Source of the DNA: an uncultured Actinomycetota bacterium
GTDB lineage: Bacteria > Actinomycetota > Actinomycetes > JACCUZ01
NCBI GenBank assembly: GCA_963746465.1
Contig: CAVVAY010000004.1
Span: 43,382 to 107,381 of the forward strand
DNA length: 64,000 nt
Direction: 5' to 3'
The position numbers and the translations under genes were made by a program. Below are positions 32,302 through 55,602 of this stretch, piece after piece. The notes under the pieces are model-generated. The model did not search any database. It worked only from the letters and a program-made list of their open reading frames with translations, and had not been told where the DNA came from. Numbering within the stretch: the first letter of the stretch is position 1; each line of letters opens with the position of its first letter.

Positions 32302-33483
32302 TCAGTGGGTGCGGAGGGTGCGGAACAGCTCGAGGGCCTGGTCGCGGTCCCAGCGGACGGCGGAGGACCCGCTGGGCGTGCGGTAGTTCGGGTCGGCCAC
32401 CGGGACCGTGATCCGCTGGCCACCGCCGCCGGCCACCGCGCGCATGGTCAGCGCGAACTGCACCAGCGACCACGGCCCGTCGCCGTCGTCGATGGTGAGC
32501 GCCGTGGTCGCGGCGTCGCCCAGCCGGAGGATGCGGAACGGGTTGAGCAGCGTGGCGGGGCTGGCCGCCTCGTCGAAGACCGCGCCGAGGAACTCCTGCT
32601 GCCGCTGCACCCGGCCGAGGTCGCCCTGCGGGTCGAAGTAGCGGGCCCGGACGTACGCCAGCGCCGTCGGGCCGTCCATCTCCTGGCAGCCCTTGGCGAC
32701 GTCGAGCCCGCTCTTGCGGTCCTTGATCTTGCGCTTCGGGCAGAGCTCGACACCGCCGACCGCGTCGGTCATGCCGACGAAGCCGCCGAAGCCGATCTCG
32801 GAGTAGTGGTCGATGTGCAGCCCGGTGACCGTCTCGACGGTCTGCGCGAGCAGCGGCGCGCCGCCGAACGCGTACGCGGCGTTCAGCTTGTCGCGGCCGT
32901 GACCGGGGATCGGCACGTACGAGTCGCGCGGCAGGCTGACCAGCGTGGGCTCCCCGCTGTCCGGCTTGTGCAGCAGGATGATCGTGTCGGTACGCCGGCC
33001 GGCCACCTTGCCCAGGTGCAGGTCCTTGACCTCCTGGTCGCTGAGCCCCTCGCGGCTGTCGGAGCCGACGATCAGCCAGTTGGTGCCGGACGCCGGTGCC
33101 GGGCGGCCCTCGTAGTCGCGCAGTGCGTCGACCTTCTCGATCCGGGTGTAGAAGAACAGCATCGCGCCGACCAGCAGCGCGAGGACGAGCAGCAGGGCCA
33201 GCAGGACCCGCTTCGTCCAGCGCCCGGCCCCGCCCCCGCTCCGCCGCGGGCGGGAGAAGTCCGGCGGCGGGTGGTCGCCTCGGCGCGGCCGGGCGGTCTC
33301 CGGGGACGACGAGGACGGCGAGCCCGGCCGGGCGCTCGCGGGCGGCAGCACCTGGGTGCGCTCCGAGTCGGCTGGAGCGGGCCGTGCGGTGCCCAGCGGG
33401 GGGCGGGGGCTCTCCGGCGGCGGCCGCCGGGTGCCGTCCTCGCCGCGCGACCAGCCCTCCGGCCAGTCCCTGGGTCCGCTCAT
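32302..33483 (-). CDS. LytR-CpsA-Psr (LCP) family cell-wall glycopolymer ligase
   Basis: ATG 33483. A Pro/Arg-rich cytoplasmic N-terminus and one TM helix are followed by the LCP motifs LIVGSDSR, RTDTIILL, SLPRDSYV and KLNAAYAFGG. Confidence 0.9.
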   Translation of the reverse strand: MSGPRDWPEGWSRGEDGTRRPPPESPRPPLGTARPAPADSERTQVLPPASARPGSPSSSSPETARPRRGDHPPPDFSRPRRSGGGAGRWTKRVLLALLLVLALLVGAMLFFYTRIEKVDALRDYEGRPAPASGTNWLIVGSDSREGLSDQEVKDLHLGKVAGRRTDTIILLHKPDSGEPTLVSLPRDSYVPIPGHGRDKLNAAYAFGGAPLLAQTVETVTGLHIDHYSEIGFGGFVGMTDAVGGVELCPKRKIKDRKSGLDVAKGCQEMDGPTALAYVRARYFDPQGDLGRVQRQQEFLGAVFDEAASPATLLNPFRILRLGDAATTALTIDDGDGPWSLVQFALTMRAVAGGGGQRITVPVADPNYRTPSGSSAVRWDRDQALELFRTLRTH

Positions 33484-33507
33484 CCGACGACCGTACCCTT
33501 GCGCCTC

Positions 33508-34032
33508 ATGACCGATGCCTCCCCGCTCGACGGCAAGCCGACCAGCGCCGCGCGCAGCACTCTCAGCCGGATCATGACCGTGCTCGACACCAACCTGTTG
33601 GGCACGGTGCACGGCGGCGTGGTGATGAAGCTGGTCGACGACGTGGCCGGCGTTGTCGCGCAGCGCCACTCGGGCGGCCCCGCCGTGACGGCGTCGATGG
33701 ACGAGATGGACTTCGTCGAGCCGGTGCGGGTCGGCGACCTGGTGCATGCCGAGGCGCAGGTCAACTGGTCCGGCACCACCTCGATGGAGGTGGGGGTCCG
33801 GGTGCTGGCGGAGCCGTGGGACCGGGCCGGCGTCCCGCCGACGCGGGTCGCCACGGCATACCTCGTGTTCGTCGCCGTCGACGAGAACGGGCAGCCGCGC
33901 GCGGTGCCGCCGGTGCAGCCGGAGACCGCCGAGGACCGACGGCGGTTCGCCGAGGCCGAGATCCGGCGGGCGCACCGGCTGGCCAGGCGGCAGGCGATCC
34001 AGCGTTCCCGGGACGAGACCGCGCAGCAGTGA
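33508..34032 (+). CDS. acyl-CoA thioesterase (hotdog fold)
   Basis: 174 aa with LGTVHGGVVMKLVDDVAG...ATAYLVFVAVD. Confidence 0.85.
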   Translation: MTDASPLDGKPTSAARSTLSRIMTVLDTNLLGTVHGGVVMKLVDDVAGVVAQRHSGGPAVTASMDEMDFVEPVRVGDLVHAEAQVNWSGTTSMEVGVRVLAEPWDRAGVPPTRVATAYLVFVAVDENGQPRAVPPVQPETAEDRRRFAEAEIRRAHRLARRQAIQRSRDETAQQ

Positions 34033-37277: not shown

Positions 37278-38792
37278 TCAGCTGCAGACGTGATCACTCG
37301 CGGTGCGTACGCCCGTGTCGGACGGTGCTGGCCCCGTCACCCGCACGGCCCGCGCCCCGTCGTACGACGTGCCGACCACCACCTGCATGGTGCGGCCCAG
37401 CCCGGCCACCGCCTGCAACCGGGCACCGGGCAGCGCCGCAGCGACCGTCTTGATGCTCTCGGTGTAGCGGGTGTCGAACCGCACCGTGGTGCGCTCCACC
37501 CCCGTGCGGCTCCAGTTCTGCGCCGGGCCCGCGGTCTCGAACCCGCGGGCGGCCAGGTCGGCGGTCGCCAGCGAGCCGAGCCCGGGCGTGCCGGCGCCGT
37601 TGTAGACCTGCAGCCGGATCTGCGCGGGCAGCACCGTTGGCCGGCCGGTCCCGGCGCCGCCATCGCGGCGGTGCGGGCGGGCACTGTCCTCTCGCATCGC
37701 GGTGAACACCTGGGCGGCCGCGGCCTCGTCCCACAGGGCGACCGAGCCGGCCGAGGCGGTGCGGTGCGACGGGTCGGCCACCGGCACGGTGCGGAACCGG
37801 ATGTCGCTCCCCGACACGTGCCGCAGTCGAGTGCCCAGCCGCACCAGCTCCTCCTCGGTCAGCCCCGGGTCGGCCCGGACGGCGGCCAGCGCGGCGTCCA
37901 GGAAGCGCACCAGGGCCCTCGGGTCCAGCAGGACGTCGCGGCTGGTGGCCCGGTCGACCATCGCGGCCAGGAACCGTTGCTGCCGCTCGACCCGACCCAG
38001 GTCGGCGCGGGCGTCGAGATGGCGGGCCCGGACGTAGGCCAGGCCGGTCTCGCCGTCGACGTGACTGACCCCGGCCGGCAGCCGCAGGCCGGCCTTGCGG
38101 TCCCGCATCCGGACCGGGCTGCAGACGTCGACTCCGCCGACGGCGTCGACCAGGCGGACGAAGCCGAGGAAGTCGACCTCGAGGTAGTGGTCGATCCGGA
38201 CACCGGTGCTGCGCTCGACGGTGGCGACCGCGAGGGACGGTCCGCCGAAGGCGTACGCCGCGTTCAGCTTGTTGCGCCGCTCCGGCACCCGGTCCCCGTC
38301 GGACGACACGTGCTCCGGGATGGTGACGTAGGAGTCGCGCGGGAGGCTGACAGCGTCGACCGTGCCGTGCCGGGCCGAGATGTGCACCAGCAGCATCGTG
38401 TCGGCCCGGCGCCCGGCGGCGGTGGCCGCGTCGCCGACATGGAGGCGCTTCATGTCGGCGCTGCTCATCCCGGTGCGGCCGTCCGAGCCCACCAGCAGGA
38501 AGGTGGTCGAGCCGGCGGCGTTGGCCGGCGGCCGGTCGGTGACGCCGGCGAAGGCGTCGACCCGCTCGATGGACCGGCTGGACCAGGTGAGCAGGGTGTA
38601 CCCCGAGGCGCTGACCATAAGGACGGCCAGCGCGGCCACGGCCGCCGTCGCGACCAGCAGCCGGCGCAGGATGCGGCTGATCCGGGTGGGTGGCCGGCGT
38701 CCGGTGCGCGGGCCCGGACGAGACCTGCCCGCACGGCCGCGGGGGTCGAGCTGCGGCGGCAGCGGGGGGTGGACGCCGGACGGCGAGGACAT
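37278..38792 (-). CDS. LCP family ligase with C-terminal LytR_C-like domain
   Basis: 504 aa with one TM helix and motifs LLVGSDGR, RADTMLLV, SLPRDSYV and KLNAAYAFGG. The C-terminal ~90 aa read QIRLQVYNGAGTPGLG... Confidence 0.9.
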   Translation of the reverse strand: MSSPSGVHPPLPPQLDPRGRAGRSRPGPRTGRRPPTRISRILRRLLVATAAVAALAVLMVSASGYTLLTWSSRSIERVDAFAGVTDRPPANAAGSTTFLLVGSDGRTGMSSADMKRLHVGDAATAAGRRADTMLLVHISARHGTVDAVSLPRDSYVTIPEHVSSDGDRVPERRNKLNAAYAFGGPSLAVATVERSTGVRIDHYLEVDFLGFVRLVDAVGGVDVCSPVRMRDRKAGLRLPAGVSHVDGETGLAYVRARHLDARADLGRVERQQRFLAAMVDRATSRDVLLDPRALVRFLDAALAAVRADPGLTEEELVRLGTRLRHVSGSDIRFRTVPVADPSHRTASAGSVALWDEAAAAQVFTAMREDSARPHRRDGGAGTGRPTVLPAQIRLQVYNGAGTPGLGSLATADLAARGFETAGPAQNWSRTGVERTTVRFDTRYTESIKTVAAALPGARLQAVAGLGRTMQVVVGTSYDGARAVRVTGPAPSDTGVRTASDHVCS

Positions 38793-38879
38793 GCGGGGGA
38801 CCTTCCGGCGCAGGAGTGACCGTCGCTGGCGATGCTAGGTGCGTTACCGCCTTACGCCGGTCAGGCACGCCGGTAGCGT

Positions 38880-39920
38880 GTGGGCGCCATGGCCGCCCCC
38901 GAACCCGTCCCCGATCCCACCGCTGCGCCTCCGGCCGACATCGCCGGCTGGCCCGGCGTCTCGGTCGTCGTCCCGGTGCTCGACGAGGAGCACCACCTGC
39001 GGGCCGCCGTGTCGACCGTGCTCGGCCAGGACTACGCGGGCCCGGTCGAGGTCGTGCTGGCCCTGGGGCCGTCCCGGGACCGCACCGACGAGATAGCCGC
39101 GGAGCTGGCCGCCGCCGACCGCCGGGTGCGGCTGGTGCCGAACCCGACCGGCGCCACCGGCGCCGGCCTGAACCGGGCGGTGGCCGCGGCCCGGTACGAC
39201 GTCGTCGTCCGGCTGGACGGGCATGCGCTCGTCCCCGACGACTACCTGCGGATCGCGGTCGAGACGCTGCAGCGCACCGGGGCCGACAACGTCGGTGGGC
39301 TGATGTCGGCCGAGGGGGTCACCGACTTCCAGCGAGCCGTCGCGGCCGCGATGACCAGCCCGATCGGGGTCGGGCAGGCCAGCTTCCACGTCGGCGGCGA
39401 GGAAGGACCGGCGCTGACGGTCTACCTGGGCGCGTTCCGCCGCGAGGTGCTCGAGCGGCTCGGAGGGTACGACGAGACCTTCCTGCGGGCCCAGGACTGG
39501 GAGCTCAACCACCGGATCCGGGAGAGTGGGGGGGTCGTGTGGTTCACCCCGCGCCTCACCGTGTCCTACCGCCCGCGTTCCGACCTGCGTGCGCTGGCCC
39601 GGCAGTACCGCGACTACGGCCGGTGGCGCCGGGTGGTCATGCGCGAGCACGAGGGGACCGCGAGCCTGCGCTACCTCGCACCGCCGGCCGCGGTCGTGGC
39701 CGTCTCGGCCGGCACGGTCGTCGGGCTGACGTGGTGGCGGCCGGCGCTGCTCGCGCCGGTGGGCTACGCCGCCGCGGTGCTGGCCGGGTCGGCGGTCGTC
39801 GGCCGCGGCCTGCCGCCCCGCTCGCGGGCCTGGCTGCCCGTCGTCCTCGCGACCATGCACGGAGCGTGGGGGGTCGGGTTCCTCACCAGCCCGCGGAGGC
39901 TGCGCAGCGCGGGACGGTAG
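38880..39920 (+). CDS. family 2 glycosyltransferase with C-terminal membrane segments
   Basis: 346 aa with VSVVVPVLDEEHHL, ..VVRLDGHA.. and ..AQDWELNHR.. An alternative ATG start exists at 38889. Confidence 0.85.
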   Translation: MGAMAAPEPVPDPTAAPPADIAGWPGVSVVVPVLDEEHHLRAAVSTVLGQDYAGPVEVVLALGPSRDRTDEIAAELAAADRRVRLVPNPTGATGAGLNRAVAAARYDVVVRLDGHALVPDDYLRIAVETLQRTGADNVGGLMSAEGVTDFQRAVAAAMTSPIGVGQASFHVGGEEGPALTVYLGAFRREVLERLGGYDETFLRAQDWELNHRIRESGGVVWFTPRLTVSYRPRSDLRALARQYRDYGRWRRVVMREHEGTASLRYLAPPAAVVAVSAGTVVGLTWWRPALLAPVGYAAAVLAGSAVVGRGLPPRSRAWLPVVLATMHGAWGVGFLTSPRRLRSAGR

Positions 39921-39961
39921 CGTCCACCGTTGCGTGCACGTCGACCAAGGGAGCACCACAG

Positions 39962-40705
39962 ATGATCGGCATGGTGCTGGCGGCTGGAGCCGGCCGGCGG
40001 CTGCGGCCCTACACGGACACCCTGCCGAAGGCTCTGGTGCCGGTCGACGGTGCGACGACGATCCTCGACATCGCGCTGCGCAACCTCGCGGCGGTCGGTC
40101 TGACCGACGTCGCGGTGGTCGTGGGCTACCGCGCCGAGGCCGTCGAGGAACGGCAGGCCGCCCTCGAGGAGCGGCACGGCGTCCGGCTCACCCTGGTGCA
40201 CAACGACAAGGCCGAGGAGTGGAACAACTGCTATTCGCTGTGGCTCGCGCGTGACCACTTCGCTGACGGCGCGCTGCTGGTGAACGGGGACACGGTGCAC
40301 CCGGTGGACGTCGAGCGCACCCTGCTCGCCGCCCGCGAGCAGGACGGTGCCGCCGGCATCCTGCTCGCGCTGGACGACCAGAAGTCGCTGGCCGAGGAGG
40401 AGATGAAGGTCGTGCTCGACGCGTCCGGCCGGATGAGCCGGATCACCAAGCTGATGGACCCGGCCGAGGCCGCAGGGGAGTACATCGGTGCGACGCTGAT
40501 CGAGGGCCGCGCGGCCGGTGCGCTGGCCGACGCCCTCAAGGCCACCTGGGAGCGCGACCCCGACCTCTACTACGAGGACGGCTACCAGACGCTGGTGGAC
40601 ACCGGCGGCGAGGTCGGAGTCGCGCCGATCGGGACGCTGCCGTGGGTCGAGGTCGACAACCACGACGACCTCGTCAAGGCTCGGGAGATCGCGTGCCACT
40701 ACTAG
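39962..40705 (+). CDS. sugar/alcohol-phosphate cytidylyltransferase (NTP_transf_3, LicC-like)
   Basis: 247 aa with the nucleotide-binding loop MVLAAGAGRRLRPYT..PKALV. Confidence 0.8.
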   Translation: MIGMVLAAGAGRRLRPYTDTLPKALVPVDGATTILDIALRNLAAVGLTDVAVVVGYRAEAVEERQAALEERHGVRLTLVHNDKAEEWNNCYSLWLARDHFADGALLVNGDTVHPVDVERTLLAAREQDGAAGILLALDDQKSLAEEEMKVVLDASGRMSRITKLMDPAEAAGEYIGATLIEGRAAGALADALKATWERDPDLYYEDGYQTLVDTGGEVGVAPIGTLPWVEVDNHDDLVKAREIACHY

Positions 40706-40710
40706 CCCGG

Positions 40711-41751
40711 ATGCTGCTCAGCCCGCTGTTCATCGACATCCGCGCGGGCGCGGTGACGGGGCTGGGCGACCTGCTGTCCGACCGGCGGATCTCCGCCGAC
40801 GGGCACGTCGCAGTGGCGGTCGGACCGGGGCAGGGCGAGAGCGTCGTCGAGGCGATCCGGCCGTCGCTGGCCAACGCTGACGTCTTCACCGTCCGCGGCG
40901 GCAGCCTGGAGGCCGCCGGCGAGCTGCAGACCGAGATCCGGGGCAAGAGCTACGACGCCCTGGTCGGCATCGGCGGCGGCCGGACGCTGGACGTCGCGAA
41001 GTACGCCGCCATGCGGCTCGGACTGCCGATGGTGGCTGTCGCGACCAACCTCGCGCACGACGGCATCGCCTCGCCGGTGAGCTCGTTGCTGCACGAGGGT
41101 GGCAAGGGGTCCTTCGGTGTCGTCCCACCGGTGGCAGTGGTCGTCGACCTCGACTACGTGCGCACCTCGCCGCCGCAGATGGTGCTGTCCGGGGTGGGTG
41201 ACCTGGTCAGCAACATCACCGCCTGCGAGGACTGGCGACTGGCGTCCCGCGAGCGAGGTGAGCCGGTCGACGGGCTGGCGGTGACGTTCGCCCGTACTGC
41301 CGCCGAGGCCGTGCTGCACCGCACCGACGGCATCGAGTCGGACGGGTTCCTCACCGCGCTGGCGGAGGGGCTCGTGCTCTCCGGCATGGCGATGACCGCC
41401 GCCGGCGACAGCCGCCCGAGCAGCGGCGCCGACCACGAGATCATGCACGCGGTGGACCAGCTCTTCCCGGGCACCGCCACCCACGGCGAGCTGGCCGGCG
41501 TGGGTGCCCTCTTCTCGGCGTACATCCGGAAGAACGAGCGGCTTGCCGAGCAGATCGACCGCTGCCTGAGCCGGCACGAGCTGCCGCGTGTTCCTGCCGA
41601 CCTCGGCCTGACGACCGCGCAGTTCGCCGAGGCCGTCGTGCTGGCACCGAGCACCCGCCCGGACCGGTACACCATCCTCGAGCACCTCGACCTCGACGAG
41701 ACAGCGGTGCGCGCGCGGGTCGACGCCTACATCGGCGCGTACGGCGGGTGA
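40711..41751 (+). CDS. iron-containing alcohol dehydrogenase family protein, glycerol-1-phosphate dehydrogenase-like
   Basis: 346 aa with GIGGGRTLDVAKY, ..NLAHDGIASP.. and GADHEIMHAV (putative metal ligands). Confidence 0.75.
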   Translation: MLLSPLFIDIRAGAVTGLGDLLSDRRISADGHVAVAVGPGQGESVVEAIRPSLANADVFTVRGGSLEAAGELQTEIRGKSYDALVGIGGGRTLDVAKYAAMRLGLPMVAVATNLAHDGIASPVSSLLHEGGKGSFGVVPPVAVVVDLDYVRTSPPQMVLSGVGDLVSNITACEDWRLASRERGEPVDGLAVTFARTAAEAVLHRTDGIESDGFLTALAEGLVLSGMAMTAAGDSRPSSGADHEIMHAVDQLFPGTATHGELAGVGALFSAYIRKNERLAEQIDRCLSRHELPRVPADLGLTTAQFAEAVVLAPSTRPDRYTILEHLDLDETAVRARVDAYIGAYGG

Positions 41752-41797
41752 CCGCACCCGCTGGCGTAACACCCCCGGTGGTAGCGTTCCGCAGTCC

Positions 41798-42634
41798 GTG
41801 AGCGTGCAGACCGGTGGGAGTGTCGTGGCTGGTCAGGTGGTGCCGGCGAGGCTCGGCACCCTGTGGAACAGCAGACGGATCCTGAGCCTGCTGGTGACCC
41901 GCGACCTCAAGGTCAAGTTCGCCGACTCGGTGCTGGGCTACGTCTGGTCGGTCCTCGACCCGCTGATGATGGCCGGCGTCTACTGGTTCGTCTTCACGGT
42001 CCTGATGGAGCGTCAGCTCGGCGAGGACCCGTACATCGTCTTCCTGCTCTGCGCGATGCTGCCCTGGCAGTGGACCAACGCCGTGCTGCGCACGTCGATG
42101 CGCGCGCTGTCCAAGGACTCCAAGCTGGTGCGCTCGACCAACCTGCCGCGCGAGATCTGGGTGCTGCGCACCGTCGGGTCGAAGTTCGCCGAGTTCGCCT
42201 TCGCGATCCCGGTGCTGATCTTCTTCGCCCTGGTGACCAGGGCGGACCCGTCCTGGCACGTGGTGTTCGTCCCGCTCGCGATGCTGATCCAGGCGGTGCT
42301 CCTGACCGGTGCCGGGTTGCTGCTCGCCCCCCTGGCCGTGCTGTACGGCGACGTCCAACGACTGATGCGCATCGTGATGAGGCTGCTCTTCTACTTCTCG
42401 CCGATCCTCTACGGGGTGCACGACGTCCAGGACCGGCTCGGCGGGGTCGCGGCCAAGCTGTACGTCCTCAACCCGCTCGCCGGGATCTTCGACCTCTACC
42501 GCACCTCCTTCTTCCCCGACCAGTGGGCCGGCTGGGGCGCGGTCGCGGTCTCCGCGGTGTTCTCGGTGGTGGTCTTCGTCCTCGGTGCCGTCGTGTTCCG
42601 GCGCCTCGAGGGCGCCGTCCTCAAGGAGATCTGA
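41798..42634 (+). CDS. ABC-2 type polymer exporter permease (TagG-like)
   Basis: 278 aa with six hydrophobic segments. Its N-terminus LVTRDLKVKFADSVLGYVWSVLDPL is typical of ABC-2/TagG permeases. Confidence 0.85.
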   Translation: MSVQTGGSVVAGQVVPARLGTLWNSRRILSLLVTRDLKVKFADSVLGYVWSVLDPLMMAGVYWFVFTVLMERQLGEDPYIVFLLCAMLPWQWTNAVLRTSMRALSKDSKLVRSTNLPREIWVLRTVGSKFAEFAFAIPVLIFFALVTRADPSWHVVFVPLAMLIQAVLLTGAGLLLAPLAVLYGDVQRLMRIVMRLLFYFSPILYGVHDVQDRLGGVAAKLYVLNPLAGIFDLYRTSFFPDQWAGWGAVAVSAVFSVVVFVLGAVVFRRLEGAVLKEI

Positions 42635-43405
42635 GTGACGGCGGTCATCGCTGCCGAGGGGCTCGGCATCTCTTTCATGCGCAACCGGCGTCGCGACAAG
42701 CGACTGCGCGACCTGCTCGCCGGCTCCAAGGCGCCGGACAAGGTGCCGGGCAAGAAGAAGCGCAAGGGCGAGTTCTGGGCGCTGCGCGACGTCTCGTTCG
42801 CGGTGAACGAGGGCGAAGCCGTCGGTCTGGTCGGCGGGAACGGGCAGGGCAAGAGCACGCTGCTCAAGCTCATCGCCGGTGTCCTGCTGCCCGACGAGGG
42901 GCGCATCGCGGTGCGCGGCGGGGTCGCCCCGCTGATCGAGGTGACCGGCGGCTTCGTCGGTGACCTGACTGCGCGCGACAACATCTGGCTGACGGCCGGG
43001 CTGCACGGCCTGAGCAAGCGCGAGATCGCGCAGCGGTTCGACGAGATCGTCGACTTCGCCGAGGTGGGCGACTTCCTGGACACGCCGTTCCGGCACTTCT
43101 CCTCGGGGATGAAGGTGCGGCTCGGGTTCTCGGTCATCACGACTCTCGACGAGCCCATCGTGCTCGTGGACGAGGTGCTGGCGGTCGGCGACCGGGCGTT
43201 CCGGGAGAAGTGCTACCAACGGATGAACGACATGCTCTCCGGCGGCCGCACGCTGTTCCTCGTCTCGCACAACGAGAGCGACCTGCGCCGGTTCTGCACC
43301 CGCGGGCTGTACCTGCGCGGCGGCTCTCTGGTCACCGACGGGGCGCTGGAGGACGCGTTGGCGGCCTACAGCGCCGACACGGACGAGCGGCGGAAGGCGC
43401 AGTGA
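42635..43405 (+). CDS. ABC exporter ATP-binding protein (TagH-like)
   Basis: Walker A GGNGQGKST, signature FSSGMKVRL and Walker B IVLVDE. The GTG start immediately follows the permease stop. Confidence 0.9.
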   Translation: MTAVIAAEGLGISFMRNRRRDKRLRDLLAGSKAPDKVPGKKKRKGEFWALRDVSFAVNEGEAVGLVGGNGQGKSTLLKLIAGVLLPDEGRIAVRGGVAPLIEVTGGFVGDLTARDNIWLTAGLHGLSKREIAQRFDEIVDFAEVGDFLDTPFRHFSSGMKVRLGFSVITTLDEPIVLVDEVLAVGDRAFREKCYQRMNDMLSGGRTLFLVSHNESDLRRFCTRGLYLRGGSLVTDGALEDALAAYSADTDERRKAQ

Positions 43406-45192
43406 CGGCGCCGGTCGTCGTGGATCCGGCCCCGCCGGACCTGGCGACCGGGCTCGAGGCGCTGGCGGCCGCCGCGCGGTCCGGTGGCGGCGAGCTGCTG
43501 CTCGTCGCCGCGGACCTCACGGTGCACCCGGAGGCGCTCGCCGACCTGGCCGAGGACCCGCGCCCGGCCACGGCCGTGCTCGTCAGCCGGGACCCGAGGG
43601 CAGCGCCCGGTCTCCGGGTACGGGCCGGCAGCGTCGTGGCGGCGGGCACTCCGGCGCACCGGGTGACCGATGCCGACACCGCCTTCGTGGGGGCGGTGCG
43701 ACTGTCCGGCGACGACCGGGCCGCGGCTGCCGGGCTCGCTGACGACCTCGCCGGGCTCGCCCGTCGCCATGGTTGGGCCGGCGACCCGCTGGACTACCTG
43801 GTCCTCGGCCTGGTCCGCACCGGCGTGCGGGTCGGGACGGTGCCGCTCGACCCCTGGCCGTGGCGGCGCGGGACGGCCGGCGTCGAAGCACCGACCCAGG
43901 CCGACCTGGACGCGCTGGACGAGCGCGCGGTGCACACAATCCGGTTCACCCGGGCCACCAAGTCCGACGACGGTTTCGTGGCCACCTTCCTCAGCCGTCC
44001 GTTGTCGCGCCTGCTGACTCCGTGGGCCCTGAGCCTCGGCCTGAGCCCCAACCAGGTCACGGCCGCCTCGGTCGTGATCGGTCTTGCCGCCGCCGCCCTG
44101 TTCGCGGTCGGCGGGCCGGCAGCTCTCGTCGCCGGCGCGCTGCTGCTCCAGCTGTCCCTCGTTGTCGACTGCGTCGACGGCGACGTCGCCCGGTACACCC
44201 GGCGGTTCAGCCCGCTCGGCGCCTGGCTGGACGCCTCGACCGACCGGCTCAAGGAGTTCGCCTGCTACGCCGGGCTCGCCTGGGGCGCCGGTTCCGGACG
44301 CACCGGGTGGCTGCTGGCCGCGGCGATGATCGCGCTGCAGACGAGCCGGCACAGCATCGACTACACCTTCACCGCCGTGAAGGACCTCCGCGAGGCCGAG
44401 GTCGTCCGCGCGTCGCTGGACGACGGCGACGATCCGGGTCGGCGCGGGGTCGGCGACGAGCGGGCGGCCCGCGCGATCGAGCTGAGCCGGAGGAGCAGCG
44501 CCGGCCGGCCGGCGGTGACCTGGCTGAAGAAGGTGCTGCACCTCGGCATCGCAGAGCGCTGGCTGGTCATCTCGGTGCTGGCGGCGGCGGGCCGGCCGGT
44601 CCTCGCCCTCGGCACGCTCCTGGTGCTCGGTGCCGGCTCCCTGCTCTACACCTCGGCCGGCCGGACGCTGCGGGCCAGGTCCTGGCCGCCGGAGCCGGTG
44701 ACCGACCGGGAACGCGAGATCGTCCGCGCCCAGGTGGACGGCGGTCCGCTGCTGCCGGAACGCATCGCGGCGGGGATCGCGGGCCTCCCCGGTGGGCGGC
44801 AGCGGTTTCTCTGGGTGCGCCCCGCACTGGTCCGGGCCGGGGAGTACGCCGGCCTGCTCGCGCTCACCGCGATGCTGCCCGGTGCGGCGCCGGGCGCCGC
44901 CACCTGTGCGCTGCTGCTCGTGGTCGCCTCGCACCACTACGACGACCTCTACCGGGTGCTGAACCGGCTGGCCCCGCCCGCAGCGACGGCCCGGGTGCTC
45001 GGTCTGGGCTGGCCCGGCCGGCTGCTCGTGGTGGCCGTGCTGTCGGTGCTCGGCGGCGCCGTGGGCACGGGGGGGCTGTGGGTCCTCGCTGCCGGGCTCG
45101 GCATGCTCTACCTGGGAACCGAGCCGGCGCGGGTGCTCCGCGAGGTGCGGTCCCGCGCCGACGTGCCGACCGGAGGAGCAGAAGGTGGCTGA
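43402..45192 (+). CDS. three-part membrane protein: degenerate nucleotidyltransferase-like N-domain, CDP-alcohol phosphatidyltransferase, C-terminal polytopic domain
   Basis: GTG 43402 overlaps the upstream stop (GTGA). The CDP-OH-P motif is DCVDGDVARYTRRFSPLGAWLDASTDR. Hydrophobic segments continue to the C-terminus. Confidence 0.8.
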   Translation: MTAPVVVDPAPPDLATGLEALAAAARSGGGELLLVAADLTVHPEALADLAEDPRPATAVLVSRDPRAAPGLRVRAGSVVAAGTPAHRVTDADTAFVGAVRLSGDDRAAAAGLADDLAGLARRHGWAGDPLDYLVLGLVRTGVRVGTVPLDPWPWRRGTAGVEAPTQADLDALDERAVHTIRFTRATKSDDGFVATFLSRPLSRLLTPWALSLGLSPNQVTAASVVIGLAAAALFAVGGPAALVAGALLLQLSLVVDCVDGDVARYTRRFSPLGAWLDASTDRLKEFACYAGLAWGAGSGRTGWLLAAAMIALQTSRHSIDYTFTAVKDLREAEVVRASLDDGDDPGRRGVGDERAARAIELSRRSSAGRPAVTWLKKVLHLGIAERWLVISVLAAAGRPVLALGTLLVLGAGSLLYTSAGRTLRARSWPPEPVTDREREIVRAQVDGGPLLPERIAAGIAGLPGGRQRFLWVRPALVRAGEYAGLLALTAMLPGAAPGAATCALLLVVASHHYDDLYRVLNRLAPPAATARVLGLGWPGRLLVVAVLSVLGGAVGTGGLWVLAAGLGMLYLGTEPARVLREVRSRADVPTGGAEGG

Positions 45193-45967
45193 CCGCCCGA
45201 CCATCGCCGAGCTGCGGGCCGTCACGCAGCCGGAATCGGTGATGGGACGACGCACCTCGGAGCACTGGACCGGTGACCTCTACATGAGGCGGCTGTCGCC
45301 GTACCTCACCCGGGTCCTGCTCGGCACCGCCATCACCGCCAACGGCGTCACCGTGCTGATGATCGTCACCGGCGTCGCAGCCGGAGCGGGCCTGCTGATC
45401 CCGGGTCTCGTCGGCGCCGTGCTCGCCGCGTTGCTCGCCCAGCTCCAGATGCTCTGGGACTGCTGTGACGGTGAGGTGGCCCGCTGGCGGCAGACGTTCT
45501 CACCGAGCGGCTTCTTCCTGGACAAGCTGGGCCACACCCTGGCCGAGACCGCGATCCCGCTGGCGCTGGGCATCCGCGCCGACGGCGGCGTGGACTCGAT
45601 GGGTGGGTGGACCACCCTGGGCGCGCTGCTCGCCGTGCTCGTTCTGGTGAACAAGTCGCTCAACGACGCGGTGCACATCGCCCGGGCGGTTAGCGGGCTC
45701 CCGAAGCTGGAGGATCGGGCCGAGGAGGCCGCGCCTCGGGTGTCGAGCGTCCGGCGGCTACGGTCGCTGGCCCGGTTCGTGCCGTTCCACCGGGCGTTCC
45801 ACTCCATCGAGCTCACCCTGCTCGCGCTGGTCGCGGGCGTCATCGACGCGGCGACCGGTGGCGGGCTCGAGGCCACCCGGCTGCTGGTGGCGATCCTCGT
45901 GCCGGCCGCCGCCCTGACCGTTCTCGGGCACCTGGCGGCGATCCTCACGTCCAGCAGGCTGCGATGA
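45185..45967 (+). CDS. CDP-alcohol phosphatidyltransferase family protein
   Basis: 260 aa with the motif DCCDGEVARWRQTFSPSGFFLDKLGH. It overlaps the upstream gene by 8 nt. Confidence 0.85.
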   Translation: MADRPTIAELRAVTQPESVMGRRTSEHWTGDLYMRRLSPYLTRVLLGTAITANGVTVLMIVTGVAAGAGLLIPGLVGAVLAALLAQLQMLWDCCDGEVARWRQTFSPSGFFLDKLGHTLAETAIPLALGIRADGGVDSMGGWTTLGALLAVLVLVNKSLNDAVHIARAVSGLPKLEDRAEEAAPRVSSVRRLRSLARFVPFHRAFHSIELTLLALVAGVIDAATGGGLEATRLLVAILVPAAALTVLGHLAAILTSSRLR

Positions 45968-46830
45968 CCCCGCCCACCGTCGGCGCGGTGGTGCTCAGCA
46001 TGGGCACCCGCCCCGACGAGCTCCCGCGCGCCCTCGCGTCGCTGCTGGCCCAGCGGGGCGTCGACCTCGACGTCGTCGTGGTGGGCAACGGCTGGGACCC
46101 CGTCGACCTGCCGGTCGGCGTGCGCACCGTGCACCTTCCCGAGAACGTGGGAATCCCGGAGGGTCGCAACGTCGGCGCCGCCGAGGCGCGGGGGGAGTAC
46201 CTCTTCTTCTACGACGACGACGCGTACCTGCCCAGCACCGACGTGGTCGCTCGGCTGGTCGACGTGCTGGTGGCAGACGACCGGGTCGGTGCCGTCCAGC
46301 CAAGACCGGTCGACCCGACCGGCAAGCCGGCACCGAAGCGGTGGGTACCGCGCCCGGGTGGGCGCGGCGCCCTGCAGCCCGGAGCCGTGGGCTGGTTCTG
46401 GGAGGGCACCTTCGTCGTACGCCGGCAGGTGTTCGAGCAGGCGGGAGGCTGGCCCGGTCACTTCTTCTACGGGCACGAGGGCATCGAGCTCGCCTGGCGC
46501 ATCTGGGACGCGGGCTATGTCACCTGGTACGCCCCGCAGGTCGTGATGAACCATCCGGCGACCTCTCCTACCCGGCATGAGACCTACTACCGGCTCAACG
46601 CCCGGAACCGGCTGTGGGTGGCCCGGCGGAACCTGCCCTGGCCGCTGGCCGTCGTCTACGTGGCGGTCTGGACCGCGCTGACCATCGTCAGGTTCCGTTC
46701 GCCGCGGCTGCTGAAGCTGTGGTTCGCCGGGTTCCGCGAAGGGCTGGGGCCGGGAGCCGGGGAGCGTCGACCGATGCGTTGGCGGACCGTCTGGCGCCTG
46801 ACCCGGGCCGGCAGGCCACCCGTCATCTGA
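45964..46830 (+). CDS. family 2 glycosyltransferase
   Basis: 288 aa with VGAVVLSMGTRPDEL and FFYDDDAY. ATG overlaps the upstream stop (ATGA). Confidence 0.85.
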   Translation: MTPPTVGAVVLSMGTRPDELPRALASLLAQRGVDLDVVVVGNGWDPVDLPVGVRTVHLPENVGIPEGRNVGAAEARGEYLFFYDDDAYLPSTDVVARLVDVLVADDRVGAVQPRPVDPTGKPAPKRWVPRPGGRGALQPGAVGWFWEGTFVVRRQVFEQAGGWPGHFFYGHEGIELAWRIWDAGYVTWYAPQVVMNHPATSPTRHETYYRLNARNRLWVARRNLPWPLAVVYVAVWTALTIVRFRSPRLLKLWFAGFREGLGPGAGERRPMRWRTVWRLTRAGRPPVI

Positions 46831-46899
46831 AAACATCGGGCGCCATAGACTCGGCGGCTGCTGCCGGCCGACGACGTATGAGAACGAGAGGGAGTCCGA

Positions 46900-49746
46900 G
46901 TGTCCCGACGGACCGCCTCCGGCCCGCCCGCCGAGCCTGACGTGTCGGTCGTGGTCATCGGGTACAACGACCGCAAGAACCTGCCGAAGGCGATCAGGTC
47001 GGTGCTCGACCAGAGCCTGCGCAACCTCGAGGTGCTGGTCGTCGACGACTGCTCGACGGACGACTCGGTCGCTGCGGCGGAGCAGATCGCCCGGCAGGAC
47101 CCTCGGGTCACGGTGATCCGCCTGCCGGAGAACAGTGGCGGCTGCAGCCGGCCTCGCAACGTCGGCATCGAGCGCGCACGGGCGCCGTACGTGATGTTCC
47201 TCGACAGCGACGACGTCTACGAGCGGCACGCCTGCAAGAACCTGCTGCTCGCGGCCGAGCGCACCGGAGCCGACGTCGTGGCCGGGAAGGTGGTGCGGGT
47301 CCACCTCGCCAAGAACCGGGAGTCGCCCTGGGCCAAGAAGCTGTTCACCGGCCGCGCGGTCTACCGCGGTGTCCGGGAGAACCCGCTGCTGTTCTTCGAC
47401 CCGCTGTCGACCAACAAGATCTACCGCCGGGACTTCCTGGACCGCAACGACATCCGGTTCCCGGAGGGAGTCCACTACGAGGACTCCCTCTTCTCGACGA
47501 AGGTCTACTGCCTGGCCGAGACCATCGCCGTGATCCCGAACCTCGTCTACTACTGGCGGGTGGTGGCCGACGCGGAGGAGGCCGAGGCCTCGATCACCCA
47601 GCGGCGCTTCGAGTTCGAGAACTTCCGGGACCGGGTCGCTGTGCACCGGATGATGGACGACTTCCTGCGCGAGCACGACTCGGCCGACCTCAAGGTGCAC
47701 AAGGACTTCAAGTTCATCCGGCACGACCTCAAGCTCTACCTCACCGACCTGCCGGAGCGCGACGACGAGTACCAGCGCAAGTTCATGGAGCTGGCCGCCG
47801 ACTACCTCGCCACGGTCAGCGACGAGACCCTGGCGATGGTCCTCCCGGTCGAGCGGGTGTGTGTGCACCTGATCCGCAAGCTCGACGTGGCGGGGACGCT
47901 CAGCACGGTCGACTACCTCCGGTTCGGCTTCAAGCTCTCGACCGACCTGGTCGAGCAAGACGGCCGGGTGTACTGGTCCGGGACGTACCTCGACACCCCG
48001 GAGGACCGGGCCGCGATGGACGTCACCGAGATGGGCTTCCACCGGCTGCCGTTCGAGCGACTCGCCCTGCACAACCTGATCACCGCCGTCAGCCTGCAGG
48101 GGTCGGTGCTGCAGATCGAGGGGCGGGTCGTGATCCCGCTGAGACGGATCCAGCCGGACGACGAGCTGGAGCTCTGCCTCGACGTGAGGTCACGGGGTGC
48201 CGGCGGCACCAGGAGGTCCCGGCCGGTGCGCGACTGGTCGATCGAGGCGGACCGGCTCCGCTACCGCGCCGACCTCGACCTCTCCGCCGCCCTCGGCGAG
48301 CTCGACCTGGACAACCCGGTCTGGGACCTCCGGATGGAGATCCGGCGCGGCGTCGAGGTGAACGTCTCGCCGATCGCCATCGACCCGACGAAGGTGACCG
48401 GCCAGCGCATCCCGGTCCGGGCCAGGATGGGCGGCGCAGCCATCGGGTACGTGGTGCCGTTCGTCACCACCCGGCTCAACCTGGCGTTCGAACAGGCGCC
48501 CGACACCCGGCTGTCCGCGTTGGGGGCCAGGGCCGACCTCCTGCGCAAGCGGGCCGGCCACTCGCTGCGGTGGCGATCGAGCAAGACCGTCGGCAACAAC
48601 GCCGCGCTGAAGGCTCTGGCATACAAGGTGTTCCGCCGGCTCCCGGTCAAGCGTGGACTTGCCGTGTTCGAGTCGCACATGGGCAAGCAGTACTCCGACA
48701 GCCCCCGATACATCTACGAGGCCGCGGTGGCCGCTGGCCTCGAGCGGCTCGGGCTCCACCCGGTGTGGTCCTACGCGCGTCGCACCGACGGGTTCCCCAC
48801 CGACGTCCGGCTGGTGCGCCGGGACAGCTGGCGCTACCACCTGGACCTCGCGAGGGCCGAGTTCTGGGTGGACAACCAGGGCTTCCCGCGTGGGTTCGCG
48901 CGACGCCGCGAGACGACGTACGTGCAGACCTGGCACGGAACGCCGTTGAAGCGGATGGGTTTCGACTCGCCGGCGCTGGAGCGGGCCGGGCTGGCCGTAC
49001 GGCGCCAGCAGCGGGCGATGGTCAAGCGGTGGAGCGCGCTGCTGGTGCCCAGCGAGTACTTCGTCGAGACGTTCGTGAAGTCCTACGGGTACCAGGGTCG
49101 GTTGGTCCGCAAGGGACTGCCGCGCAACGACCTGCTGGTCCGTGGCGCCGACGAGGCGTGGCTGCGGGCCAAGAAGCATGAGCTCGGCCTGCCCACCGAC
49201 CGCCGGCTGGTGCTCTACTGCCCGACGTTCCGCGACCGGGCCCGCCGGCTCCGCACGTCGTACGTGCTGCCGCTGGAGCTCGAGCCGATGCGCCGCGAGC
49301 TGGGGGAAGACTTCCACCTGCTGCTGCGCCCGCACTACCTCGACAACTACAAGCTCTCACCGCGGTTCGCGCCTTTCGCCACCGACGTCTCGCGGCACCA
49401 CGACGTCACCGAGCTCATGCTGCTCGCCGACGTGCTGGTCACCGACTACTCCTCGGTGATGTTCGACTTCGCGAACACCGGCAAGCCGATGGTGTTCTAC
49501 ACCTACGACTACGAGGACTACGTCCGCGACGAGCGCGGGACGTACTTCGACCTGCCGGACGTCGCGCCGGGCCCGATGGTGGCGACCCAGGACGAGCTGG
49601 TCCAGGCGCTGCGCACGGTCGACGACGACGTGGACCGCTACCAGGAGCGGTACGCCGCGTTCCGCGAGCGCTTCTGCACCTTCGAGACCGGCCACGCCGC
49701 TGGGGCCGTGGTCGAGGAGTTCTTCGCCCGGGGACCGTCGTCGTGA
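46900..49746 (+). CDS. bifunctional GT2 glycosyltransferase / CDP-glycerol glycerophosphotransferase (TagF-like)
   Basis: 948 aa. N-terminus VSVVVIGYNDRKNL..VVDDCSTDDS. The C-terminal TagF motifs are VQTWHGTPLKRMG and LVTDYSSVMFDF. Confidence 0.9.
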   Translation: MSRRTASGPPAEPDVSVVVIGYNDRKNLPKAIRSVLDQSLRNLEVLVVDDCSTDDSVAAAEQIARQDPRVTVIRLPENSGGCSRPRNVGIERARAPYVMFLDSDDVYERHACKNLLLAAERTGADVVAGKVVRVHLAKNRESPWAKKLFTGRAVYRGVRENPLLFFDPLSTNKIYRRDFLDRNDIRFPEGVHYEDSLFSTKVYCLAETIAVIPNLVYYWRVVADAEEAEASITQRRFEFENFRDRVAVHRMMDDFLREHDSADLKVHKDFKFIRHDLKLYLTDLPERDDEYQRKFMELAADYLATVSDETLAMVLPVERVCVHLIRKLDVAGTLSTVDYLRFGFKLSTDLVEQDGRVYWSGTYLDTPEDRAAMDVTEMGFHRLPFERLALHNLITAVSLQGSVLQIEGRVVIPLRRIQPDDELELCLDVRSRGAGGTRRSRPVRDWSIEADRLRYRADLDLSAALGELDLDNPVWDLRMEIRRGVEVNVSPIAIDPTKVTGQRIPVRARMGGAAIGYVVPFVTTRLNLAFEQAPDTRLSALGARADLLRKRAGHSLRWRSSKTVGNNAALKALAYKVFRRLPVKRGLAVFESHMGKQYSDSPRYIYEAAVAAGLERLGLHPVWSYARRTDGFPTDVRLVRRDSWRYHLDLARAEFWVDNQGFPRGFARRRETTYVQTWHGTPLKRMGFDSPALERAGLAVRRQQRAMVKRWSALLVPSEYFVETFVKSYGYQGRLVRKGLPRNDLLVRGADEAWLRAKKHELGLPTDRRLVLYCPTFRDRARRLRTSYVLPLELEPMRRELGEDFHLLLRPHYLDNYKLSPRFAPFATDVSRHHDVTELMLLADVLVTDYSSVMFDFANTGKPMVFYTYDYEDYVRDERGTYFDLPDVAPGPMVATQDELVQALRTVDDDVDRYQERYAAFRERFCTFETGHAAGAVVEEFFARGPSS

Positions 49747-50894
49747 CCGGCTCCGAGCAGGCCCGGGACGTGTTCCTGGTCGCCAACAACCTCGAGGAGC
49801 TGGGCGGGGTCCAGCGAGTGACCCACAACCTCGCCCTGATGCTTCACGACCGGGGGCACCGGGTGACCGTCATCGGGATCCAGCACCACCCCGAGCCCCA
49901 CGACTACGGCGAGCGGCCCTATCGCTGGCTGGTGCTCAACGAGCAGGCGGAACCGCCCGAGCCGAAGGAGGACGGCCTCCTGGCCCGGTTCGACCCGCGG
50001 GTCGCCGCCGCCCGGAAGGCGCACCTCAGGGCGCGGAAGTCGGCCGTCGACCGGCTCTCGGCGCTGTTCGCGGAGGCCGACGAGGGCGTCGTCGTCTGCA
50101 TGCAGATCTGGTCGATGAACTGGGTGGCACCGGCGGCGACCGACCATCTGCACGTGATCGGGATGAGTCACGAGTCGTTCGACGCCACTCTCGGGTCGAC
50201 CCGGTGGGAGCGGGTGAAGAGGTTCTACCGCGACGTCGACCTGCTGCTGCTGCTCACCGAGCACGACGCCGCGCGCTTCGAGCTCGAAGGCTTCAACAAC
50301 GTCGGGGTCATGCACAACTCGCTGTCCTTCTACCCGAAGGTCGCCAGTGACGTCACCGCGCACGTCGTCGTCGCGGCCGGCCGGCTCGCGCCGGAGAAGG
50401 GCTACGACCGGCTGATCAGCGCCTTCGCCGTCGTCGCCGGCGAGCACCCCGACTGGGTCCTGAAGATCTTCGGTCGCGGCCCGTTGCTGCCCCGCCTGCG
50501 CAAGCAGGTCGACGCGCTCGGGCTGACCGACCGGGTGCTGCTGCCCGGGCTGGCCGACGACATCGAGGCCGAGCTGGTGCAGGCCTCGGTGTTCGCGCTG
50601 TCGTCCATCCACGAGGGCCTGCCGATGGCCCTGGCCGAGGGGATGGCCTGCGGCCTGGCCTGCGTGGCGTTCGACTGCGCCCCCGGCGTACGCGAGATCG
50701 TCACCGACGGCGTCGACGGCCTCGTCGTGCCGCCCCGGAACGTCGAGGCGCTGGCCGCCGGCCTGTCCCGGCTGATGGGCGACGACAAGCTCCGCCGCGC
50801 CTACGGCCAGGCTGCGCGCGAGAGCGTCCGCCGGTTCGCCCCCGACGCGGTGGTCGCGCAGTGGGAGGCCGTCTTCGCCCTCGTGGACCGTTGA
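49743..50894 (+). CDS. GT4 (GT-B fold) glycosyltransferase
   Basis: 383 aa with the C-terminal motif SSIHEGLPMALAEGMACGL. The GTG start overlaps the upstream stop. Confidence 0.85.
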   Translation: MTGSEQARDVFLVANNLEELGGVQRVTHNLALMLHDRGHRVTVIGIQHHPEPHDYGERPYRWLVLNEQAEPPEPKEDGLLARFDPRVAAARKAHLRARKSAVDRLSALFAEADEGVVVCMQIWSMNWVAPAATDHLHVIGMSHESFDATLGSTRWERVKRFYRDVDLLLLLTEHDAARFELEGFNNVGVMHNSLSFYPKVASDVTAHVVVAAGRLAPEKGYDRLISAFAVVAGEHPDWVLKIFGRGPLLPRLRKQVDALGLTDRVLLPGLADDIEAELVQASVFALSSIHEGLPMALAEGMACGLACVAFDCAPGVREIVTDGVDGLVVPPRNVEALAAGLSRLMGDDKLRRAYGQAARESVRRFAPDAVVAQWEAVFALVDR

Positions 50895-51003
50895 CCGTCG
50901 GCAGACCTGCTCTTTGCCCGGTTCGGGCTAGCTTGCCCTCGTCCGTTCCGCCATCAAGAGCGTGGACCGAGGCGCCGATAACTCTGGAGTGACCCGCGTA
51001 GCC

Positions 51004-55490: not shown

Positions 55491-55602
55491 GCGGACTCCT
55501 CGAGGAACGGCATTCTGGGGCTGGGACGAAGCGGCCCCACGATACGCGGGCGCCCGGGGTGCTCGACAACCGCGTCACACGGCGTCGGGTAGCGTCAGTC
55601 CG

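Follow-up and report, generated by a model that had tools for sequence, protein, structure and literature searches.

A probable actinobacterial glycopolymer locus that couples a glycerol-1-phosphate-dehydrogenase-like enzyme and a LicC-like nucleotidyltransferase to two CDP-alcohol phosphotransferases

The window, which is the whole 64,000-nucleotide stretch of DNA analysed here, corresponds to positions 43382-107381 of contig C4 (GC ~72%) in the 3.57-Mb, 14-contig genome of an uncultured soil Actinomycetota bacterium. This report concerns a gene cassette at 39962-45967 of the window, which encodes a nucleotidyltransferase (NT), a dehydrogenase (DH), a two-gene exporter and two CDP-alcohol phosphotransferases (TRI and CDP2), and which lies within a series of ten plus-strand genes (38880-50894) with short gaps or overlaps between them. 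The textbook route to wall teichoic acid uses sn-glycerol-3-phosphate via TagD. The families represented in the cassette are known and their combination is not a described pathway; it is a real and widely conserved module, probably for a variant of teichoic-acid-type glycopolymer synthesis. With its whole mechanism, the cassette is read, at slightly better than an even chance, as a self-contained module for a glycerol-phosphate glycopolymer of the cell envelope that replaces the TagD step; confidence in the enantiomer and in the acceptors is lower than that. The closest loci elsewhere are from Actinomycetota soil metagenome-assembled genomes, one of them carrying the label Sporichthyaceae. The genes of the chain are as follows.

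38880..39920, + strand: GT2a, family-2 glycosyltransferase, first gene of the chain (PF00535, 81 bits)
39962..40705, + strand: NT, LicC/IPCT-like nucleotidyltransferase, predicted CTP:glycerol-phosphate cytidylyltransferase (PF00483/PF12804)
40711..41751, + strand: DH, sn-glycerol-1-phosphate-dehydrogenase-like Fe-ADH_2 enzyme (NF002022, 243.6 bits)
41798..42634, + strand: ABC-2 type permease, TagG/Wzm-like (PF01061, 50 bits; galactan-export Wzm model, 62 bits)
42635..43405, + strand: ABC ATPase, TagH/Wzt-like (teichoic-acid export ATPase models, 193.5 and 174.1 bits)
43402..45192, + strand: TRI, three-part membrane enzyme, CDP-OH_P_transf + DUF5941 (Pfam; AlphaFold model)
45185..45967, + strand: CDP2, 6-helix CDP-alcohol phosphotransferase (PF01066)
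45964..46830, + strand: GT2b, family-2 glycosyltransferase (PF00535, 46 bits)
46900..49746, + strand: GT2-TagF fusion, glycosyltransferase + CDP-glycerol glycerophosphotransferase domain (PF04464, 323.7-327 bits; PF00535, 121.5 bits)
49743..50894, + strand: GT4 glycosyltransferase, last coupled gene of the chain (PF00534, 135.5 bits)

The stop codon of NT is 5 nt from the ATG of DH, and the TGA of the permease abuts the GTG of the ATPase at 42632-42637. The ATPase and TRI share a GTGA overlap at 43402, TRI and CDP2 overlap by 8 nt at 45185, and CDP2 and GT2b share an ATGA at 45964. An earlier note on this DNA had described the region as a chain of overlapping or adjacent reading frames for a nucleotidyltransferase, a dehydrogenase, a TagGH-like exporter and two CDP-alcohol transferases. 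Pfam, NCBIfam and the translations return the same gene set, and the coordinates, motifs and GTGA/ATGA couplings are all correct. A promoter and terminator scan of 38700-52400 gave nothing above chance. The sequencing runs listed as containing this DNA, each with a small share, are metagenome DNA runs from soil, groundwater, rhizosphere or unspecified sources; none is an RNA run.

DH carries the motifs GIGGGRTLDVAKY and DHEIMH. It scores 243.6 bits on NF002022, the glycerol-1-phosphate dehydrogenase model, roughly fivefold more than on any other NCBIfam family; the glycerol dehydrogenase models give at most 50.7 bits. Among solved structures, the sn-glycerol-1-phosphate dehydrogenase (G1PDH)-type chains 3ce9 (164 bits), 4rgq from M. 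jannaschii (157 bits) and 5fb3 from Pyrobaculum (127 bits) are matched, against ~50 bits for the solved glycerol dehydrogenases. DH is thus far nearer to G1PDHs, and its assignment to the EgsA/AraM subgroup, made earlier from the motifs, holds. The Fe-ADH_2 fold is recognized (PF13685, 103 bits), with a GIGGG dinucleotide-binding block that is invariant in 14 orthologues; the blocks GGG, GxGD, SRPxSGxxH, HG and TRPxRxTxLE show little or no variation among these orthologues, down to 35% identity, and the C-terminal TRPxRxTxLE block is common to DH and the M. jannaschii enzyme. D164 (in GxGD), H242 and H258 align with the latter; among the orthologues neither histidine varies, and conservation of D164 is at least 90%. 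These residues fit an Asp...His...His triad, spaced ~80 and 16 residues apart as in the Aeropyrum pernix enzyme, which we take to be the metal ligands. Archaeal EgsA and AraM of Bacillus subtilis belong to the same family and share the conserved blocks, and in published trees the actinobacterial homologues fall within the bacterial G1PDH clan (PMC6431249). It is established enzymology that the G1PDH fold determines the face of dihydroxyacetone phosphate to which hydride is added (reviewed in PMC4244643). The predicted reaction of DH is the reduction of dihydroxyacetone phosphate to the archaeal enantiomer, sn-glycerol-1-phosphate. Other families carry G1PDH-like genes of a second class, frequently as multiple copies (e.g., L033:9508-10359 and L034:9834-10448); these score ~150 bits over model positions 12-283 in open frames of ~460 aa, are 27-29% identical to DH, have no cassette neighbours and probably represent a different enzyme.

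EgsA and AraM feed ether lipid synthesis via GGGPS/PcrB, whereas the present genome has no PcrB/GGGPS gene and its DH gene is linked instead with genes for a cytidylyltransferase and a polymer; sn-glycerol-1-phosphate would thus not be destined for ether lipid. GpsA is present, so sn-glycerol-3-phosphate is freely available. With that supply in place, a dedicated and invariably coupled DH is sensible only if NT needs its product, and it is by this indirect argument that the unusual enantiomer is proposed.

NT has the nucleotide-binding signature LAAGAGRR...PK, of which LAAGxGxR...PK is invariant in 14 orthologues, and scores 51 and 49 bits on PF00483 and PF12804. Its best solved relative is LicC (1jyk, phosphocholine; 59.7 bits), followed by IPCT (4jd0, inositol-1-phosphate), so that the label LicC-like is apt and the signature canonical. 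The nearest enzymes, LicC, IPCT and PntC, activate small phospho-alcohols. NT is predicted to convert sn-glycerol-1-phosphate and CTP to CDP-glycerol, probably CDP-1-glycerol. The predicted NT-DH complex received a score of 0.00, which is not evidence either way. Many apparent NT-DH and TRI-NT fusions, from a search for natural fusion proteins, were set aside; they are single-contig metagenome proteins in which the C-terminus of NT is lost before the start of DH, the pattern of frameshift artefacts between abutting genes. A 593-aa open frame in genome G070 was likewise rejected as a fusion. Proteins P0121-P0150 from metagenome assemblies comprise NT-DH, TRI-NT and even NT-DH-CDP2 "fusions" with domain ends truncated at the junctions; they look like indel artefacts of noisy assemblies and could mislead surveys of domain architecture.

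TarJ and TarI are a reductase and cytidylyltransferase pair making CDP-ribitol from ribulose-5-phosphate, and the logic of DH and NT is similar, with a dedicated reductase and an adjacent cytidylyltransferase in a surface-polymer locus leading to a CDP-polyol. The pneumococcal Gtp system also places a reductase and a cytidylyltransferase in a surface-polymer locus: the gtp1 dehydrogenase, gtp2 nucleotidyltransferase and gtp3 phosphotransferase lead to CDP-2-glycerol (PMC1391919, PMC3493582). It differs from the cassette in using dihydroxyacetone and a separate phosphotransferase, and in both systems transfer is by TarL/TagF-type or WchX-type enzymes rather than by CDP-alcohol phosphotransferases. 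The Gtp precedent favours a reading in which the substrate of DH is an unphosphorylated or otherwise different carbonyl compound and that of NT is glycerol-2-phosphate, some other polyol phosphate or a phosphonate. So do the relatives of NT at 35-38% identity that are fused to aminoethylphosphonate transaminases, and the change of substrate known in G1PDH paralogues, such as a haloarchaeal glycolaldehyde reductase (PMC9700705). However, the conserved cassette has no Gtp3/LicA-type kinase or phosphotransferase, so the product of DH must already carry its phosphate, and the fivefold lead of the G1PDH model in the scores of DH also speaks against a different alcohol, which is considered unlikely.

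Conservation of the gene set across Actinomycetota, a comparison that the earlier note had proposed, was examined in related loci and in whole genomes. NT directly precedes DH, with an overlap or a gap of 5-9 nt, in all but one of the 23 related loci in which both genes were resolved, i.e., in 22 (at least seven families of the phylum; the exception is L024), and the pairing persists in loci at only 29-41% identity. The order LCP (LytR-CpsA-Psr) / GT2a-NT-DH-TagG-TagH-TRI-CDP2-GT2b-GT2TagF-GT4 is kept in 18 close loci. GT2a adjoins the cassette also in L024, L025 and L031, and GT2b directly follows CDP2, with no cassette gene intervening, in 19/22 loci with a full-length CDP2 match. Two Streptomyces-type genomes of 7-9 Mb have the arrangement TRI-NT-DH-CDP2-GT2b-TagG-TagH and no TagF or LCP gene within 20 kb, and variants without TRI occur in two other families (L031, L032). 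Since the order varies and the set persists in distant genomes, the conserved core is taken to be NT-DH-CDP2-GT2b plus the exporter. Almost every locus examined that is long enough has GT2b and a TagGH-type exporter along with the cassette.

The co-occurrence sample comprised 301 genomes of Actinomycetota, with thresholds of at least 340 bits for a CDP2 orthologue and at least 200 bits for a G1PDH-like gene. CDP2 is present in 16 genomes and abuts DH in 15 of them, the exception being this window; DUF5941/TRI is found in 14 genomes of the sample and in 14 of the 16 with CDP2, and a G1PDH-like gene in 36. TagD is above its cut-off in five genomes and reaches at least 100 bits in seven, and none of the 301 has a TagD of at least 100 bits together with DH. 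The claim that the set stands "instead of TagD" therefore extends beyond the window, as bona fide TagD and DH never occur together in the sample. TagF is present in 17 genomes, of which 12 have the cassette without a real TagD, two have TagD beside TagF without DH, and three have neither. Four cassette genomes lack TagF, which means that the CDP-alcohol enzymes can be the only consumers. This cross-tabulation of TagD, G1PDH, TagF and CDP2 is new here, as are the cassette genomes without TagF. In a 2026 synteny survey the cassette genes were present in 843-856 of 929 complete Streptomyces genomes (~92%), with tagG, tagH, araM, idi, crtB and HpnH as neighbours; the survey assigns no function to them (PMC13118837). 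In family f9, with genomes of 2.3-3.5 Mb, 19 of 20 genomes (16 of 17 without the unpublished genomes G001, G048 and G120) have a G1PDH-like gene scoring at least 200 bits and no CDP2. Three f9 loci were examined, and in two of them (L028:9700-11450 and L029:9684-11476) the gene has an NT homologue as its neighbour. These two loci have the NT-DH pair only, at 29-41% identity, with a phosphoesterase, a type I phosphodiesterase and a DUF4012 protein as neighbours; no CDP-alcohol enzyme or TagF was found nearby or detected in the two genomes.

As noted earlier, the window lacks tagD, and no TagD-type gene occurs on the whole of contig C4. The genome has three CTP_transf_like matches, on contigs C5, C13 and C7, and its sole TagD (TIGR01518) match, on C7, scores 68.7 bits against a cut-off of 165.4. 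The premise that no tagD elsewhere supplies the precursor thus stands in that no TagD above cut-off is present, and is qualified by this one weak TagD/RfaE-like gene. The gene (C7:808745-809116, minus strand; L026:8712-9149) encodes a 145-aa cytidylyltransferase with practically the same score on TagD (69 bits) as on RfaE domain II (68 bits). It sits in a Wzx / Wzz-tyrosine-kinase / GT4 exopolysaccharide locus and may serve a second polymer by activating either glycerol phosphate or a heptose.

A non-orthologous replacement of TagD could also yield ordinary CDP-(sn-3)-glycerol and a conventional polymer, if NT takes sn-glycerol-3-phosphate or DH has drifted in specificity. TagD-type cytidylyltransferases and TagF-like polymerases accept either enantiomer in vitro (PMC8262930), so that specificity in this chemistry is loose, GpsA supplies sn-glycerol-3-phosphate, and DH scores below the equivalog cut-off of its model. 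With sn-glycerol-3-phosphate as the substrate, however, a coupled G1PDH-type gene would be superfluous, and yet NT and DH are adjacent in 22/23 loci; the G1PDH fold moreover sets the hydride face on dihydroxyacetone phosphate (PMC4244643). The conventional product is accordingly rated improbable.

TRI is a protein of 596 aa whose AlphaFold model has a mean pLDDT (predicted local distance difference test) of 90.9. Residues 1-176 have a cytidylyltransferase fold (Z 12.5 to IPCT 4jd0) without the GxGxR...K signature, and the N-domain of AF2299 from Archaeoglobus fulgidus is similar (PMC4634129). The core contains the complete CDP-alcohol signature DxxDGxxAR-x8-GxxxDxxxD, invariant in 40 homologues, and DUF5941 (PF19365) corresponds to the last four, C-terminal helices. 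At E ≤ 1e-5 there are 515 homologues, with PF19365 and PF01066 in nearly all of the 120 listed; a literature search on "DUF5941" found no papers. In VIA-align the top match of the whole membrane part is a cholinephosphotransferase with diacylglycerol (8ul9; Z 22.7, root-mean-square deviation (rmsd) 3.6 over 314 residues, model residues 55-596), followed by Xenopus CHPT1 and human CEPT1 (Z 21). AF2299 (Z 19.4, model residues 1-425) and IPCT-DIPPS (Z 17.1) rank behind these Kennedy enzymes, and TRI scores 58.8 bits on the IPCT-DIPPS model NF041135 against a cut-off of 580. The Kennedy enzymes CHPT1/CEPT1 (8UL9, 8ERO, 8GYW, 9UET) have 10 helices like TRI and align with it to the C-terminus (Z 20-22.7, rmsd 3.6-4.0). 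They differ in having no cytosolic N-domain and only 11-15% identity to TRI; the use of CDP-choline and diacylglycerol is theirs and is not assigned to TRI. The 10-helix Kennedy-like architecture of the TRI model, with DUF5941 as the extra helices, is reported here for the first time.

In Kennedy enzymes a membrane lipid receives the phospho-alcohol of a soluble CDP-alcohol, and extra C-terminal helices mark CDP-alcohol phosphotransferases with a lipid acceptor (PMC4634129). The extra helices and the Kennedy-type matches of the model suggest a reaction of this type for TRI, with a soluble CDP-alcohol as donor of the phospho-alcohol and a membrane lipid as acceptor. The product could then be a membrane phospholipid instead of a polymer, TRI placing glycerol phosphate on diacylglycerol or another lipid to give a phosphatidylglycerol-type or novel glycerophospho-lipid or glycolipid. 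The choline/ethanolamine phosphotransferases at the top of the structural matches, one with diacylglycerol bound, are in keeping with this, as are the isoprenoid/hopanoid genes idi, crtB and HpnH beside the Streptomyces cassette and the four cassette genomes without TagF. It is nevertheless regarded as distinctly unlikely, in view of the GT2b and polymer exporter that go with the cassette in nearly all sufficiently long loci, its embedding here among TagF and LCP genes, and the two variants (L031, L032) that lack TRI.

CDP2 has 260 aa and 6 helices (model pLDDT 85.9), and its fold and Pfam match are clear. AF2299 is its sole sequence match in the PDB and its best match in VIA-align (4q7c; Z 18.4, rmsd 2.9 over 211 residues), followed by PIP synthases and DIPPS (Z 17); the Kennedy-pathway enzymes reach only Z 10-13. 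The signature, at residues ~92-121, reads DxxDGxxAR-x8-GxxxD-xxx[H/A]. Among the window protein and 22 orthologues the fourth position (D4) is His in 21 and Ala in two, both Streptomyces-type, and Asp in none of the 23; a Glu/Asp is conserved at D3+8. This systematic replacement of D4 is new here, and together with the conserved acid at D3+8 it suggests that the catalytic base of CDP2 is altered. Protein atlas clusters are only the generic "CDP-alcohol phosphatidyltransferase family" from Actinomycetota.

AF2299 and IPCT-DIPPS (Archaeoglobus fulgidus; 4O6M/4O6N/4Q7C and 4MND) are the best sequence matches of both TRI and CDP2 and provide the best structural match of CDP2. In each, the membrane CDP-alcohol phosphotransferase has a cytidylyltransferase-like domain at its N-terminus, and the donor is soluble CDP-glycerol or CDP-inositol, AF2299 having been crystallised with CDP-glycerol (PMC4634129). 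The earlier identification of two CDP-alcohol phosphotransferases agrees with these relatives. The archaeal proteins differ in processing no lipid, the product of IPCT-DIPPS being di-myo-inositol phosphate (PMC4634129). In the cassette, by contrast, the active nucleotidyltransferase is a separate gene, the N-domain of TRI lacks GxGxR...K and DUF5941 is added, CDP2 lacks the fourth Asp, and glycosyltransferase and polymer-exporter genes are the neighbours. The soluble substrates of the nearest solved relatives (PMC4634129) would fit a soluble phosphodiester osmolyte, such as the diglycerol phosphate or glycerophospho-inositol of hyperthermophiles. This is judged very improbable, as the cassette is linked to glycosyltransferase, ABC-2 exporter, TagF and LCP genes and TRI has four extra membrane helices.

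The exporter ATPase scores 193.5 and 174.1 bits on the TagH-type equivalog models, below their cut-offs of 538 and 320, and the permease matches only the galactan Wzm model (62 bits against a cut-off of 380); by Pfam, the exporter belongs to the wider ABC-2 glycan-exporter class. Two LCP genes lie just upstream of the chain on the opposite strand, and the position of the nearer one is kept in the loci of close relatives (L002-L018, by tblastn). TagF domains (PF04464) are full-length in three genes of the window and occur nowhere else in the genome; the GT2-TagF fusion at 46900..49746 is likely to consume CDP-glycerol, and the other two genes are 5-12 kb downstream of the chain.

32302..33975, - strand: LCP glycopolymer ligase gene, upstream context (PF03816, 144.8 bits)
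37278..38792, - strand: LCP ligase with LytR_C domain, divergent from the cassette (PF03816, 160.6 bits; PF13399)
55351..57561, + strand: second TagF-domain protein (PF04464, 425.7 bits at C4:99767-100852 = window 56386-57471)
~58688..62245, - strand: third TagF-domain protein, start approximate (PF04464, 269.3 bits at C4:102093-103172 = window 58712-59791)

The frame of the third TagF gene, from stop to stop, reaches 62521. The earlier note had the two CDP-alcohol transferases followed by three TagF-like polymerases. All three are in the window; they do not form a consecutive run, and the third is on the minus strand. GT2b lies between CDP2 and the first of them, and GT4, nuclease, CitMHS transporter and sulfotransferase genes lie between the TagF genes. 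The frame at 50962-52134 was rejected as a TagF gene, as it encodes a thermonuclease-like secreted nuclease. This nuclease directly follows GT4 here and in five of six related loci (L002, L006, L010, L015, L019), and in L011 it follows TRI instead. Genes of the TagO and TagA families are present elsewhere in the genome.

The following mechanism is proposed. What the analysis establishes is the identity of the genes, their coupling, conservation and co-occurrence, and the resemblance of the folds; every substrate, the enantiomer, the acceptors and the polymer itself are inferred. Glycerol phosphate would be transferred from the soluble CDP-glycerol donor by TRI and CDP2. TRI probably primes on an acceptor embedded in the lipid, and the acceptor of CDP2 is probably a hydrophilic hydroxyl of the growing head group. 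GT2b and GT2a would add sugars, and the three TagF enzymes of the window probably draw on the same CDP-glycerol pool, so that the unit may be installed by the CDP-alcohol enzymes, by the TagF enzymes or by both. The TagGH-type ABC transporter would move the lipid-linked product outwards, and the LCP enzymes encoded nearby may link it to peptidoglycan. The TagD/TagB/TagF/TagGH system of B. subtilis 168 resembles this scheme in its CDP-glycerol, TagF-type enzymes, TagGH-type exporter and LCP ligation. The window differs from it in the absence of TagD, the precursor probably being made by a G1PDH-type enzyme and a nucleotidyltransferase of another fold; in its CDP-alcohol phosphotransferases, which are outside the textbook pathway; and in a polymer that would be of the opposite enantiomer.

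To our knowledge, the sn-glycerol-1-phosphate of bacterial surface polymers is, in textbook accounts, always derived from phosphatidylglycerol. Litschko et al. (2021) considered free sn-glycerol-1-phosphate probably absent from most bacteria, took CDP-1-glycerol likewise to be probably absent from bacteria, and traced all that is known in surface polymers to sources other than CDP-1-glycerol, although TagF-like polymerases can use CDP-1-glycerol in vitro (PMC8262930). The suggestion that the locus holds chemistry not described for wall polymers is in line with that account. Every computational test run points towards the companion suggestion of an opposite enantiomer installed through a membrane CDP-alcohol transferase.

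Several points weigh against the proposed module. The score of DH on NF002022 (243.6 bits) is below the equivalog cut-off of 413, a value reached by no actinobacterial genome in the 301-genome sample, and G1PDH paralogues with other substrates exist, as cited above. The specificity of NT for glycerol phosphate, and for one enantiomer, is deduced solely from gene adjacency. CDP2, without the fourth signature Asp, may work differently or may not be catalytic. The TagD/RfaE-like gene on C7 could supply some CDP-glycerol, and the genome is 92.6% complete. The co-occurrence counts are not independent and are inflated by relatedness, since a single genus accounts for 8 of the 16 cassette genomes. 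The searchable literature holds no experimental paper or assay on any cassette gene in any organism, and no functional study came up for the presumed S. coelicolor genes between idi and the hopanoid cluster.

A further reading, rather doubtful but with several observations in its favour, is that the cassette is an LtaS-independent route to lipoteichoic acid in Actinomycetota. TRI would prime a membrane lipid with sn-glycerol-1-phosphate from CDP-1-glycerol, CDP2 and GT2b would extend and glycosylate the chain in the cytoplasm, and the ABC transporter would flip the product; the polymer would be sn-1 like the lipoteichoic acid of Firmicutes, by wholly different chemistry. Streptomyces, Thermobifida and Agromyces were reported to have lipoteichoic acid and no LtaS orthologue, the synthesis of the polymer being unexplained (PMC3196553). 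The reading fits in that the cassette is near-universal in Streptomyces, which has lipoteichoic acid and no known LtaS orthologue, and it fits the lipid-acceptor-type fold of TRI, the cassette genomes without TagF and the lack of a clear LtaS here. A search of the own genome for LtaS gave six sulfatase-family matches, none of which exceeds 26.5 bits on LtaS against a cut-off of 970, a negligible similarity, although a divergent LtaS analogue may be present. Three of them, sulfatase-superfamily proteins of 705-770 aa (C7:704977-707094, C5:624252-626375 and C5:637253-639565), have a C-terminal sulfatase-domain match only.

The G1PDH of Streptomyces has so far been read, in evolutionary studies, only as a possible lipid gene (PMC6431249). 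If the proposed glycopolymer module is correct, much of the Actinomycetota, with almost all Streptomyces among them, would build an envelope polymer with a mirror-image precursor and enzymes of the lipid-synthase type. This would explain why actinobacteria keep an "archaeal" glycerol-1-phosphate dehydrogenase, and would provide a concrete candidate for the unexplained synthesis of actinobacterial lipoteichoic acid. The cassette gives directly testable targets in the genetically tractable Streptomyces.

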